Assembly (NCBI RefSeq): GCF_058153355.1
Contig: NZ_CM177019.1
Reading direction: 5' to 3' (one strand)
DNA length: 64,000 nucleotides
Part shown: in pieces, positions 21,350-38,115 of the stretch
Position numbering within the stretch: the stretch's first letter is position 1
Layout: every line of letters starts with the position of its first letter
The notes under the pieces: generated by a model
What the model was told of the DNA's origin: nothing
What the model saw: the letters and a program-made list of their open reading frames with translations, nothing else
The model's database searches: none
Position numbers and translations under genes: made by a program

Positions 21350-21493
21350 TATTTCCCTACTGGCGTATAACGCTCACCAATTGTTATACGCCATCCTCAC
21401 TAAAAATATAGATTAAATAATATCTGAAAAGCAAAATCACTCCTGTAGAACAGTATTATAATCACCGAAAAATATCATTTAACAGGAGTGTTA

Positions 21494-22423
21494 ATGGCTA
21501 CATTAATGGAAAAAGATGCGCTTTTAAACGGAGCCAGTCAGTGCATCGCGTTTTTATCAAATATCGTTGATAATTGCTCCGTTTCGTCACGTCAGGATTC
21601 AGTCGATGATCTCACACGATTAGTTGGCTATCGCGATTATCTTTATTCCACTCCAGCTGAATTTGTTGATTTTACACAGGGAAAGAGTCACCTTCAGCAG
21701 GTAAGAACTCAATATCAGCGTGAATTCAATAATACTGCACATTCAGAAAATAAAGTATCTTTTGATTCTATTTGGCAGCGTCTGACAAATCATGAAGTCA
21801 CACCGCAACAGCATCCCATTGGTTTTGTTTTAGGTGGGCAACCCGGAGCGGGTAAATCATCGCTGATTGAATTAGCAAAAAGGGAAACAAAGAATAATAT
21901 AATGATTATTAACGGTGATGATTTCAGATTTCTACACCCTGATTTTAATTATATCTACCAAACTCATGGGGATGATTTTGTTACCCATACGGCGAAATTT
22001 TCCGGCGAAACGGTCGAACGAGCAATTGAGAGGGCGATAGTCAGTAAACTCAACATTGTTGTCGAAGGAACATTTCGTAATGCCACTACGCCGCTACAAA
22101 CATTAAAAAAACTCAAAGATGCAGGCTACCAAACAAACGTCATGATAAAAACCACCTCAGCGACGGTAAGCTGGGAAAGCACCAATGAACGGTATAATAA
22201 GGACAAAGAGGCGGGAAATATCGCCCGAAAAGTGGATAAAAACCACCACGATCTCGTCACCGATTTGCTGGCAGAAAATGCCAGCAAGGTGTTTGCTTCG
22301 AACCTGGCAGATAAGTTTGCGGTGTATTCGCGTGAGAAGATGATATTTAGTTCACAAGCGGCAACGAATGACGATATTGCGACGCTTATACAGAAGGTAA
22401 TCAGCGGGAATTCACAAGAATAA
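21494..22423 (+). CDS. zeta-toxin-family P-loop kinase with an N-terminal extension of about 100 aa (EzeT-like single-chain toxin-antitoxin architecture)
   Basis: Walker A GGQPGAGKSS, followed by INGDDFRFLHPDF and VVEGTFR, which align with zeta-toxin motifs (GGQPGSGKTS / DxF / VIEGTGR); ATG at 21494 preceded by AGGAG; AT-rich relative to neighbours. Confidence 0.72.
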   Translation: MATLMEKDALLNGASQCIAFLSNIVDNCSVSSRQDSVDDLTRLVGYRDYLYSTPAEFVDFTQGKSHLQQVRTQYQREFNNTAHSENKVSFDSIWQRLTNHEVTPQQHPIGFVLGGQPGAGKSSLIELAKRETKNNIMIINGDDFRFLHPDFNYIYQTHGDDFVTHTAKFSGETVERAIERAIVSKLNIVVEGTFRNATTPLQTLKKLKDAGYQTNVMIKTTSATVSWESTNERYNKDKEAGNIARKVDKNHHDLVTDLLAENASKVFASNLADKFAVYSREKMIFSSQAATNDDIATLIQKVISGNSQE

Positions 22424-22455
22424 TAAGGGATGATGGAGTGAAATAACGCCGGGCA

Positions 22456-23247
22456 TCACGTCCGGCGTATCACTGTTTGATACAACAACCCATCCAGCTC
22501 CCTGGCATCTCCATCCCTGCTATCCGGTAACACTGGTGGAATTTCCCCACGCGCCAGTTCCGCACGAATAAACGCATGTAACAAAGGACGGCGCGGACCA
22601 TATTCCGCTTCTCCCGCGCGCTGTTTACGTTCCAGCAGTTCGTCTATTTCTGCGCGTAACGGCGCATCAAGCTCGCTTCCCGCCAGTAACTCGGCAAAGC
22701 GCATTGGCGGCACGCCTTTTCCCGCTTCAACCCAGCGTACGGCCAGCAGCGGACGCAGCACGTAAAAGTATTTTTTCAGTCGAACTTCATCGCCCTGCAA
22801 ATAGTCGCGGAAGTTTTTCTGCGCCATCGAATAGTAATGCCAGCGTGCACGCAACGAAGAAAACCACATTGGGACCATTGCCTTAAGCGCCGTTATCGTT
22901 TCTTCATCTTGTTGATAGACCACCGGAGAATCCAGCCATTCTATCAGCGTCGGATTCGCGCCTTTCAATAATCCCAGCGCCTTACGCCACTCCCAACCGG
23001 AAACATCTAATTCGTCGTCGATGGGCAGCTCGATAACATCGCGCGGCGCCTCCACCCGCAGATACCATTCCAGCGGGTGAACATACAAAAATCGTACATC
23101 GTAGTCGCTGTCGGGAGAGGCAAATCCCCAGCCGCGGCTGCCTGATTCGCAGGCGTACAGCACTTTCACGCCATAGAGACGTTCTATTTCTTTTAACTGC
23201 TGCGATACCCGTTCGCGCATCGCAGCACTGACTCCATTTAATGGCAT
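22456..23247 (-). CDS. pol-beta-superfamily nucleotidyltransferase (GS-x9-DxD motif; resembles the COG3541 / RlaP-type predicted nucleotidyltransferase family)
   Basis: CESGSRGWGFASPDSDYDVRF contains the G-S...D-x-D nucleotidyltransferase signature; about 263 aa from the ATG at 23247 (ORF-track GTG at 23256 overlaps the upstream gene); translationally coupled to the SPFH gene. Confidence 0.68.
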   Translation of the reverse strand: MPLNGVSAAMRERVSQQLKEIERLYGVKVLYACESGSRGWGFASPDSDYDVRFLYVHPLEWYLRVEAPRDVIELPIDDELDVSGWEWRKALGLLKGANPTLIEWLDSPVVYQQDEETITALKAMVPMWFSSLRARWHYYSMAQKNFRDYLQGDEVRLKKYFYVLRPLLAVRWVEAGKGVPPMRFAELLAGSELDAPLRAEIDELLERKQRAGEAEYGPRRPLLHAFIRAELARGEIPPVLPDSRDGDARELDGLLYQTVIRRT

Positions 23248-23252
23248 GTTAC

Positions 23253-24380
23253 TCACCCTTTGATATTAACCAACCCATGCAGAACCTGATCCAGACCGCC
23301 AAATACAGAGATGTTATCGATCCGCTCAGCCACTCTCTCCAGCGTTTCCAGTTCTTTTAAGCGTAACGCCACCGGGTTGTTTTCCATGACTTTAGCGGTA
23401 TTGAGTAACGAACGTGTCGCTGCCGTTTCTTCACGCCGACGAATCACATTCGCCTGCGCAGATTTCTCTGCCTCAACCAGCTGCGCGAGGATATTTTTCA
23501 TATCACCAGGCAGGACGATATCTTTCACCCCTAATGAGGCAATCTCCATACCAAATGGCAACATGCGCGATTTCACCTGTTCGCTGACAACGTCATCAAT
23601 GACCTGTTTATCTTCCAGCAACTCATCCAGCGTACGCGTACCTACCGCTTCACGCAGTGCAAATTGCAATTCCCGATACAAATGATCAATCGGCTTCGTT
23701 AACTGACTAAATGCCAATAACACGTCGCTGTAGCGCCAGTTGGCGGCGAGGTTAATCCGCAGATTGACTTTATCTTTCGTTAAGATTTCTTGCCCGCTGA
23801 CTTCCAGTACCTGCAAGCGGGTGTCAACCACTTCAGCTTCAACCAGATGGTTAATTTTCCAGTACGCAGTCAGTCCCGGCAGTAACAGCGCCTGCGTTTC
23901 ACCATCGATTTTCAGTACACCTACGTGCCAGGCCGGAACCTGCACCGTCAGTATCGCATCGCGGCCTTTAACTGCCCCTTTGCGCCGTGGCTGCAATACC
24001 GCATTCATCACCTCCGTTTGAACCTGGACTTGCTGCGTATTCATCCGCACAAGCGTCAAATCATCCTCTACACGCCAGTACAAACGACGCGTTGATGGCG
24101 GCAGGATCTCCAGCAAAATACCGTCCATATACAACGCCCCGGCTTCAGTCTCCGACAAGTCGGCCACCACGCAATATCTTTCCACCCAATCAGGCTGAAA
24201 GCGGCGCAAATAATCCGCCAGCACGTCGGGAACTTCGCTGCCATCGAGCGTAATCAGCAAGACTTCTGGCGTATTTAACCAGGGTAAAAGATGCTCGCCT
24301 GCAGGCAGCACTTTGTAGTAATCGCCATTTCTGGAGAGTAATGCCAGCTGATCTTTTCTTACGCTTATTTTCTTAATCAT
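23253..24380 (-). CDS. SPFH/band-7 (stomatin-like) domain protein with an N-terminal domain of about 190 aa and no obvious membrane anchor
   Basis: The C-terminal half (ILTKDKVNLRINLAANWRY...GVKDIVLPGDMKNILAQLVEAEKSAQANVIRRREETAATRSL...PVALRLKELETLERVA) aligns with the stomatin/HflC SPFH core and the coiled-coil AEAE region; SD AAGGA before the ATG at 24380. Confidence 0.75.
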   Translation of the reverse strand: MIKKISVRKDQLALLSRNGDYYKVLPAGEHLLPWLNTPEVLLITLDGSEVPDVLADYLRRFQPDWVERYCVVADLSETEAGALYMDGILLEILPPSTRRLYWRVEDDLTLVRMNTQQVQVQTEVMNAVLQPRRKGAVKGRDAILTVQVPAWHVGVLKIDGETQALLLPGLTAYWKINHLVEAEVVDTRLQVLEVSGQEILTKDKVNLRINLAANWRYSDVLLAFSQLTKPIDHLYRELQFALREAVGTRTLDELLEDKQVIDDVVSEQVKSRMLPFGMEIASLGVKDIVLPGDMKNILAQLVEAEKSAQANVIRRREETAATRSLLNTAKVMENNPVALRLKELETLERVAERIDNISVFGGLDQVLHGLVNIKG

Positions 24381-25181: not shown

Positions 25182-26054
25182 TCAACGCCCCTTCTTTTTG
25201 CGCCCCGGCGAGGTAAAACGTTTACCATTTGACGCCGGGCGACCGCCTTTTTCCGCCGTTTTTTCCATCTTAACGACTGGACGTTTGATGCCCGCCGTTT
25301 TCGGTTTGGCCTTCGCTTTAGGTTTTGCCTCGGAAGAGGAATTTTCAATGAGCTTAAAGAGATCGATAAGCTCATCGTCGGTTAAATCGCGCCACTCACC
25401 CAGCGGAATGCCGCTTAAGCTGACGTTCATAATGCGCGTACGTTCCAGCTTTTTCACTTCATAGCCGAAGTATTCGCACATGCGACGGATCTGACGGTTC
25501 AGTCCCTGCACTAGGGTAATGCGAAAAACAAACGGCGCTTCTTTTTTGACTTTGCACTTTTTCGTCACCGTCCCGAGGATCGGCACCCCCGCCCCCATAC
25601 CACGAATAAATTCATCGGTAATCGGTTTATCGACCGTAACCAGATACTCTTTCTCATGATCGTTACCCGCACGGAGGATCTTATTCACCAGATCGCCGTG
25701 ATTGGTGAGGAAAATCAGCCCCTGGGAATCTTTATCCAGGCGGCCAATCGGGAACACGCGTTTGCTGTGGTTAACAAAATCGACAATGTTATCGCGCTCG
25801 CCATCTTCGGTGGTGCTGACAATACCGACGGGCTTGTTCAGGGCGATAAGTACCAAATCTTCGGCTTCCCGAGGCTCAATCAACTGACCATTTACTTTCA
25901 CAACGTCGCCGGGTTTCACCTGATCGCCAATGGTGGCTCGCTTGCCATTAAGGAACACATTGCCTTGCTCGATATAGCGATCCGCTTCGCGGCGTGAGCA
26001 AATTCCGCTTTCGCTGATGTATTTATTTAAACGGACTGATGAGTCGGGCAGCAT
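25182..26054 (-). CDS. rluF: 23S rRNA pseudouridine(2604) synthase
   Basis: 290-aa ORF beginning [40 protein letters not shown] (S4 domain plus pseudouridine synthase core). Confidence 0.93.
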
Positions 26055-26265
26055 AAATTCTCCTGTAAAAAACGGAATATACCGTACCTTTGGGTTGATA
26101 AAAAATAGTCATGTGCGAACTATTTGTTATTTCCATTGGCTTGAATTCGTTACCTGCTCAAATCACTTTCCAGAAGCAATGTGCGACATCGTGAGCCATG
26201 TCAGTAAGCGATTAAAATCACAGTGATAGCATGCCTCCCGTGATTTCTTACTAACCGGAGAAGTA

Positions 26266-26955
26266 ATGGAACTGCTTTTATTGAGTAACTCGACGCTGCC
26301 GGGAAAAGCCTAGCTGGAACACGCGCTGCCGCTGATTGCTGAACAGTTGCAGGGTCGCCGTTCAGCGGTATTTATTCCTTTCGCGGGCGTAACGCAGACC
26401 TGGGATGATTACACAGCGAAAACGGCTGCGGTTCTCGCTCCGCTGGGTGTTTCTGTCACCGGTATTCATAGCGTTGTCGATCCCGTTGCCGCGATTGAAA
26501 ATGCGGAAATTGTGATTGTCGGCGGCGGTAATACTTTCCAGTTGCTGAAACAGTGCCGCGAGCGCGGGCTGCTGGCACCAATTACTGACGTGGTGAAACG
26601 TGGCGCGCTGTATATTGGCTGGAGCGCAGGCGCTAACCTTGCTTGCCCAACCATTCGTACCACCAACGATATGCCGATTGTCGATCCGCAAGGTTTCGAT
26701 GCGCTAAATCTGTTCCCGCTGCAAATCAACCCGCACTTCACCAACGCGCTGCCGGAAGGCCATAAAGGTGAAACCCGTGAGCAGCGTATTCGCGAACTGC
26801 TGGTCGTCGCGCCAGAACTGACGATTATTGGTCTGCCGGAAGGTAACTGGATCACAGTAAGTAAAGGTCACGCTACGCTGGGTGGCCCGAACACCACTTA
26901 TGTGTTTAAGGCTGGTGAAGAAGCGGTGCCGCTGGAAGCGGGTCACCGTTTTTAA
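26266..26955 (+). pseudogene. pepE: pepE (alpha-aspartyl dipeptidase, peptidase E) interrupted by an in-frame amber codon at codon 16 (TAG at 26311..26313, where Trp/TGG is expected)
   Basis: From the ATG at 26266 the frame reads [38 protein letters not shown]...; the rest of the gene (ORF-track 26347..26955) is intact and matches PepE. Confidence 0.75.
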
Positions 26956-26960
26956 GTGAA

Positions 26961-27034
26961 TTGCCGGATGCATGATCCGGCATCTTGTACATAGTGCCTG
27001 ATGCGACGCTTTACGCGTCTTATCAGGCCTACAG
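26961..27034. repeat. REP element(s) between convergent pepE and yjbB
   Basis: GCCGGATGCATGATCCGGC hairpin and GCCTGATGCGACGCTTTACGCGTCTTATCAGGCCTAC. Confidence 0.6.
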
Positions 27035-27044
27035 GGGCACGGTA

Positions 27045-33918: not shown

Positions 33919-38115
<4,197 letters not shown>

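Follow-up and report, generated by a model that had tools for sequence, protein, structure and literature searches.

A recurrent Trp16 amber codon in Escherichia coli pepE, probably produced by 5-methylcytosine deamination at a Dcm site

Within the stretch of DNA analysed here (64 kb in total, hereafter the window), the gene pepE is closed by an amber codon after only 15 codons of an otherwise open frame, which raises the questions of what produced the stop, what it does to the gene and whether the base change is real at all. We consider it probable that a real G-to-A change, likely the outcome of 5-methylcytosine deamination at a Dcm site, turned Trp16 into an amber codon and inactivated pepE. 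The gene and its stop lie as follows:

26266..26955, + strand: pepE (dipeptidase E, peptidase family S51), a reading frame of 229 codons and a stop, broken at codon 16 and classed from sequence and translation as a nonsense pseudogene
26311..26313, + strand: amber codon TAG in place of Trp16 (TGG); the mutated base is 26312 (G to A)

The frame runs from the ATG at 26266 through MELLLLSNSTLPGKA to the TAG at 26311-26313, and continues for 213 further codons to the TAA at 26953-26955. Sequence and translation agree with the original prediction that an in-frame amber replaces Trp16 in an otherwise intact pepE. Read without the stop, the translation is the same as WP_000421763.1, the protein under which PepE is annotated in the close relatives and in further complete genomes of E. 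coli; residues 1-229 of the ancestral protein align to residues 1-229 of Salmonella PepE (PDB 1FY2, E=1.4e-136), and the part encoded beyond the stop (residues 28-229) matches the NCBIfam profile PRK05282, dipeptidase PepE (E=4.9e-95). The codons for the catalytic residues, read from the translation as GW-S120-AG, NP-H157-F and LP-E192-GNW, are all 3′ of the stop; Ser120-His157-Glu192 is presumably the PepE catalytic triad, in the numbering of the Salmonella enzyme. The neighbourhood is conserved as well, with rluF, pepE and then the convergent yjbB and metH, and the locus is present in 5,423 of 5,426 complete E. coli genomes (at least 80% of an 801-base query covered). A single-sequence AlphaFold model of PepE was too poor for structural claims (mean pLDDT 51). 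The window gene is pepE by sequence and synteny and matches its family over the full length, yet it is to be filed as a pseudogene because the 229-residue frame is interrupted. Between the convergent pepE and yjbB, at about 26985-27040, there is a REP-like palindromic element (gcctgatgcgacgct...gcgtcttatcaggcctac), the probable source of the numerous additional short matches that each genome gave when this region was part of the search.

The three nearest alleles from complete genomes (NZ_AP027764, NZ_CP098223 and NZ_CP028764) all have G at 26312 and thus TGG for Trp16, in agreement with the original prediction, which placed Trp here (GKAWLEH) and proposed a comparison with other E. coli alleles. 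The same Trp16 is found in the Salmonella enzyme (1FY2/1FYE), whose residues 1-25 are identical to those of E. coli PepE. The nearest allele, that of NZ_AP027764, differs from the window at 2 of 801 bases, one of them the G-to-A change at 26312, and against the nearest alleles this is the sole disabling change in the window pepE. The suggestion of a recent inactivation is supported, since the frame shows no additional lesion and, the stop aside, encodes canonical PepE; all known members of the window lineage already carry the TAG.

What the original prediction overlooked was the cause, namely that the mutated G lies within a Dcm site and that the allele is recurrent. The two Dcm sites of pepE are:

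26309..26313, no strand assigned: former Dcm site, CCTGG in relatives and CCTAG in the window; strand geometry read from the sequence
26399..26403, no strand assigned: the other of the two Dcm sites in pepE (ACC-TGG, codons 45/46), intact in the window, with a recurrent W46 amber elsewhere

Dcm methylates the inner cytosine of CCWGG on both strands. In relatives, codons 15-16 read GCC-TGG and contain CCTGG, and a G-to-A change at motif position 4 of the top strand is a C-to-T change at the inner cytosine of the bottom-strand CCAGG. pepE contains two CCWGG sites and no more; each lies on a Trp codon (W16 or W46) and is predicted to give TGG to TAG. The bottom-strand inner cytosine at CCTGG, which pairs with the first G of TGG, would carry the Dcm methyl group; this 5-methylcytosine could spontaneously deaminate to thymine and escape Vsr very-short-patch repair, whereby CCTGG would be fixed as CCTAG. 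At a hotspot in a gene whose product is dispensable, this allele would be expected to arise again and again in unrelated E. coli while mostly staying rare. CCWGG is known as a hotspot for G:C to A:T changes at the methylated base (PMC13250602, PMC10710837).

The recurrence is seen in public data. A 202-residue truncated PepE product is called on many public contigs, and nine of the ten loci inspected have TAG at codon 16; the tenth (L010, Logan SRR17335133, about 2965-2990) has a 10-bp deletion just past codon 17 that leaves the same 202-aa residual ORF. Among complete genomes, DETEC-S560 and UTAK-6 have the W16 TAG. The TAG alleles form at least 5-6 haplotype groups, 15-27 substitutions apart over 780 bp, which differ at polymorphic sites lying 8 bp before and 10 bp after the stop (three combinations seen) and also in what lies upstream, rluF in some and a sorbose-type PTS island in others. 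Furthermore, one TAG allele (L005) differs from TGG-bearing E. coli IHE3034 at a single base in 6,609, and another (L004) from TGG-bearing NZ_AP021933 likewise at one base in 6,609, this base being in both cases the codon-16 G to A; UTAK-6 differs from the O103:H2 strain 12009 (TGG) at two bases in 3,055, one of which is the same change. These three alleles are independent, because each is only 1-2 bases from a TGG neighbour over 3-6.6 kb. Judging from these haplotypes, the W16 TAG arose repeatedly in E. coli.

The proposed mechanism, combined with the second site at codons 45/46, predicts that W46 should be converted to TAG as well. This was borne out: TAG was found at codon 46 in all ten loci inspected, on six backgrounds, and the predicted 45-residue and 147-residue W46 products are abundant and named from Shigella dysenteriae 1617. 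One complete genome, NZ_CP074819, has the W46 TAG and is flagged there with an 'internal stop'. As controls, the Trp codons outside Dcm sites also give stop alleles, with W119 and W195 stops on 5 and 5-6 backgrounds, respectively, among 10 loci each; these are a mixture of TAG and TGA, and their truncation loci also include frameshifts, N-runs and contig-end truncations. Counted by backgrounds, the Dcm codons gave about 12 TAG and 0 TGA, and the non-Dcm codons 7 TAG and 3-4 TGA (Fisher p=0.04-0.08). Raw contig and block counts in the large public collection gave no clean separation of Dcm from non-Dcm sites, and such counts of truncated PepE products were dropped as a measure of the hotspot, being inflated by clonal expansion, contig-end truncation, N-runs and frameshifts.

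A fixed sample was used instead, in which concatenated queries, designed so that every 28-base seed must span the mutated base, were run against the 5,426 complete genomes. An in silico check confirmed that no sampled wild-type allele seeds these queries, the sensitivity being dependent on the local haplotypes sampled. Only two of the 16 possible transition-to-stop changes in pepE were found, W16-TAG in two genomes and W46-TAG in one. All three events, on three backgrounds, therefore fall on 2 of 16 positions, with a p of about 0.002 under equal rates, though for three events only. None of the 14 non-Dcm transition-to-stop changes was found among the 5,426 complete genomes, a result that is to be read against the small number of events and the recurrence of the control alleles in the larger collection. 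Four matches of the query for the Gln-codon controls turned out to be false seeds, with pepE intact in all four genomes; in three of them, a wild-type CCA-GAA haplotype had matched a spacer base.

The explanation that competes best with Dcm deamination is a plain random transition in which methylation has no role, the recurrence being simply what millions of public assemblies and weak selection on pepE would deliver. In its favour, the collection contains each of the eight other N-terminal fragments that nonsense mutations should leave, the W119 and W195 stops recur on 5 and 5-6 backgrounds, and other pepE lesions occur, such as the 10-bp deletion in L010 and a frameshift in S. sonnei. It is nevertheless unlikely, in that the stops at the Dcm codons are TAG only, which is the strand-specific outcome of Dcm, whereas the non-Dcm Trp codons give both TAG and TGA; all three transition-to-stop alleles in complete genomes sit on the two Dcm-target bases among 16; and Dcm sites are established hotspots (PMC13250602, PMC10710837). 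At the sequence level, the motif, the place of the changed base in it, the type of transition and the recurrence all conform to what Dcm-site deamination would leave behind, and the TAG alleles at W46 fit as well. We regard Dcm deamination as the likely cause, with good rather than high confidence because the events are few and the effect of the hotspot is moderate; the attribution draws on established Dcm biology, dcm and vsr themselves lying outside the 64-kb window. Evidently the hotspot effect is modest and not overwhelming, and over 47 kb compared with a relative the Dcm-target positions show only a slight excess of differences (2.4%, other G/C positions 1.6%).

It is also conceivable, and in our judgement quite improbable, that positive selection in certain niches favours losing PepE, such that the W16 and W46 alleles of E. 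coli, the W46 allele of S. dysenteriae and the frameshift of S. sonnei would be convergent adaptive inactivations. If this were true, two Dcm sites on Trp codons would amount to a high-rate off-switch. Mutation pressure on a dispensable gene is the better fit, because the alleles are rare (3 of 5,426 complete genomes), stand at the tips of the tree and are only 1-2 bases from intact neighbours. W16 of pepE offers a clean natural case of a Dcm hotspot giving an identical knock-out repeatedly, and homoplasy of this kind is a potential source of error in SNP phylogenies, convergence scans and association studies.

As for the consequence of the stop, the following features bear on translation of the window gene:

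26257..26260, + strand: GGAG, the native Shine-Dalgarno sequence of pepE, preserved intact before the ATG
26314..26955, + strand: 213-aa 'dipeptidase PepE' (WP_231232227.1) that PGAP annotates in other TAG genomes with the CTG next to the stop as its start codon; most probably an artefact of annotation
26347..26955, + strand: residual 202-codon ORF from TTG (codon 28), emitted by ORF callers and lacking a Shine-Dalgarno sequence

As both the ATG and its Shine-Dalgarno sequence are intact, a normal start followed by a stop after 15 codons is to be expected; ribosomes would start at the ATG and release a 15-residue peptide, and active PepE would be made at most in traces by read-through. The window lineage would thus have lost PepE function. 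Hydrolysis of Asp-X dipeptides by PepE is dispensable, as known from Salmonella pepE genetics, and in the window strain this activity via PepE is probably lost, with small biological weight. Since pepE is monocistronic and the downstream yjbB is convergent, no polar effect on the neighbours is expected.

An N-terminally shortened but active PepE, restarted at CTG17 or TTG28, is what WP_231232227.1 implies: the W16-amber pepE of two complete genomes, NZ_CP116094 and NZ_CP157151 (L016 and L017, each at 1530-2171), is annotated in RefSeq as exactly this 213-aa 'dipeptidase PepE', and the protein is found on 164 contigs. We hold such a product to be very unlikely, because no Shine-Dalgarno sequence was found ahead of CTG17 or TTG28 in pepE, E. 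coli and Salmonella PepE have the same residues 1-25, and of the family profile PRK05282, which starts at residue 1, the residual ORF covers only positions 29-229. CTG is, moreover, a very poor start codon. PGAP also treats the equivalent W46-amber allele in NZ_CP074819 inconsistently with W16, flagging it as a pseudogene with an internal stop, which indicates that the difference in annotation between W16 and W46 reflects annotation rules and not biology. Because RefSeq annotates the W16 allele as a 213-aa PepE, comparisons of gene content will miss this loss.

No less doubtful is the idea that the full-length enzyme is still made, either through an amber suppressor tRNA or through sufficient natural read-through of UAG-C. 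The frame is perfectly intact apart from the stop, and a stop followed by C is a comparatively weak termination context. An intact frame is, however, equally expected after a recent mutation, and the window holds no suppressor candidate, the one tRNA gene in it being that for tRNA-Glu(UUC) within the rrn operon. An amber-suppressor history was among the readings offered in the original prediction, but it is not needed, because the DNA belongs to a rare E. coli lineage from nature, not to a K-12 laboratory derivative, and the occurrence of the same allele on many unrelated backgrounds, one base from TGG neighbours, does not suggest a special suppressor host.

The original prediction had also allowed for a sequencing error, and this reading we regard as scarcely tenable and largely refuted. 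Nanopore consensus errors do concentrate in CCAGG and CCTGG motifs, about 70% of them falling in Dcm motifs with default basecalling models (PMC6591954), and miscalling of the methylated motifs could in addition mimic the recurrence. Against this, GCA_015332025.1 (contig AAXEGZ010000041.1) is identical to the window over 9,128 bases, TAG included, and a Logan contig of SRR8656992, seen in three samples, is identical over 7,773 bases, again with the TAG. Across 47 kb aligned to NZ_CP074749, about 136 CCWGG motifs are kept in the window, and the Dcm-target positions that differ number 7 of 286 (2.4%), in both directions, compared with 1.6% of other G/C positions, so there is no motif-wide miscalling. 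Among 35 orthologues checked over about 50 kb, pepE is the only CDS with an internal stop or frameshift. Many run assemblies with short contigs have TAG alleles too, as do older genomes, S. dysenteriae 1617 among them. The TAG at 26311-26313 can be taken as a real and isolated mutation with near certainty, because independent assemblies are identical, Dcm motifs are not miscalled and 34 of the 35 genes are intact. Real Dcm-site mutations and artefacts nonetheless look alike and need such cross-checks, as nanopore errors concentrate in CCWGG.

The least probable reading of all, namely that a single ancient TAG allele spread between lineages by recombination, has in its favour that E. coli recombines and that several TAG alleles exist, but it was rejected and stands refuted for at least four backgrounds, given that the TAG is linked to three different combinations of the flanking sites and that three alleles sit next to TGG neighbours while being 15-27 substitutions per 780 bp from other TAG alleles.

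The window comes from a rare natural E. coli lineage. A 55-mer of the window centred on the A at 26312 had no match in the 5,426 complete E. coli genomes, and the search design works, since the same 55-mer with the G restored seeds 1,350 of them as a positive control. The lineage-specific proteins are named Escherichia coli by NCBI and occur on only two contigs. Shigella-type genome decay was suspected from an ISSso6-like insertion sequence and from 20 kb at about 96% identity to all complete E. coli genomes, and was ruled out on the 34 of 35 intact orthologous genes and the NCBI naming of the lineage-specific proteins.

Several other features of the window were recorded. The ISSso6-like element contributes an IS110-family transposase gene (1348-2523, + strand) that interrupts a SopA-family (yjbI-like) gene at about 1000-4380, between ubiC and malM; its exact 391-aa protein is named from Shigella sonnei Ss046, and only 5 of the 5,426 complete genomes, one of them an O121 strain, cover at least 80% of a 5-kb query spanning this arrangement. 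At 12366-12460, psiE follows malG almost directly and xylE, which in K-12 lies between the two, is apparently absent. A three-gene island between lysC and yjbD (21488-24380) encodes a zeta-toxin family protein, an RlaP-type nucleotidyltransferase and a slipin (Band 7); it is present in about 1,424 of the 5,426 complete genomes, and the window copy is divergent, at 97.9% to its best match and about 94% to most, its slipin being known from two contigs only. Between iclR and aceK (33919-36105, + strand) lies a gene of about 38% G+C for a 728-aa type III effector of the ShET2/EspL2 family (EspL4), absent from the syntenic NZ_CP074749, where iclR abuts aceK. In rluF (− strand, codon 181, window position 25512), 800 bp from the change in pepE, there is a second Dcm-site transition, CACTAGG in the window lineage versus CACCAGG in two other strains, which is synonymous (Leu, CTG to CTA).

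Set beside known systems, the enzyme itself is well placed: peptidase E, or aspartyl dipeptidase, of MEROPS family S51 (1FY2, 1FYE, 6A4R) is near-identical over the full length, the difference being that the window frame is closed at codon 16. Shigella lineages carry many pseudogenes, and two of them have pepE inactivated by other lesions. In S. dysenteriae 1617, TGG became TAG at the other Dcm site, W46, leaving 45-aa and 147-aa products (AHA68490.1/AHA68491.1), while S. sonnei has a frameshift after Gly88 together with W46C, and its 107-aa product is found on at least 1,000 contigs; in the window, by comparison, pepE is the only broken gene of the 35 checked. In the literature on pepE pseudogenes in E. 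coli, we found no paper on the W16 or W46 amber alleles. The mechanism is textbook knowledge and the W16 allele is already in public databases.

The closest precedent is lacI, in which Coulondre, Miller, Farabaugh and Gilbert reportedly described amber-mutation hotspots at Dcm sites in 1978. As in lacI, a C-to-T change at the inner methylated cytosine of CCWGG would make the TAG in pepE, and the same base is struck repeatedly. The lacI sites are CCAGG, with CAG to TAG on the coding strand, and were scored in the laboratory, whereas in pepE it is the non-coding strand that would bear the methylated cytosine (CCTGG, TGG to TAG), and natural isolates are where the base recurs as mutated. Methylation-induced hypermutation in natural bacterial populations is said to have been described by Cherry in J Bacteriol in 2018 as a genome-wide statistical result. 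The likeness is in the elevated rate of C-to-T change at methyltransferase target cytosines, which shows as repeated independent changes among close genomes; unlike that work, pepE is one gene in which both Dcm sites sit on Trp codons, so that each Dcm hit would be a knock-out.
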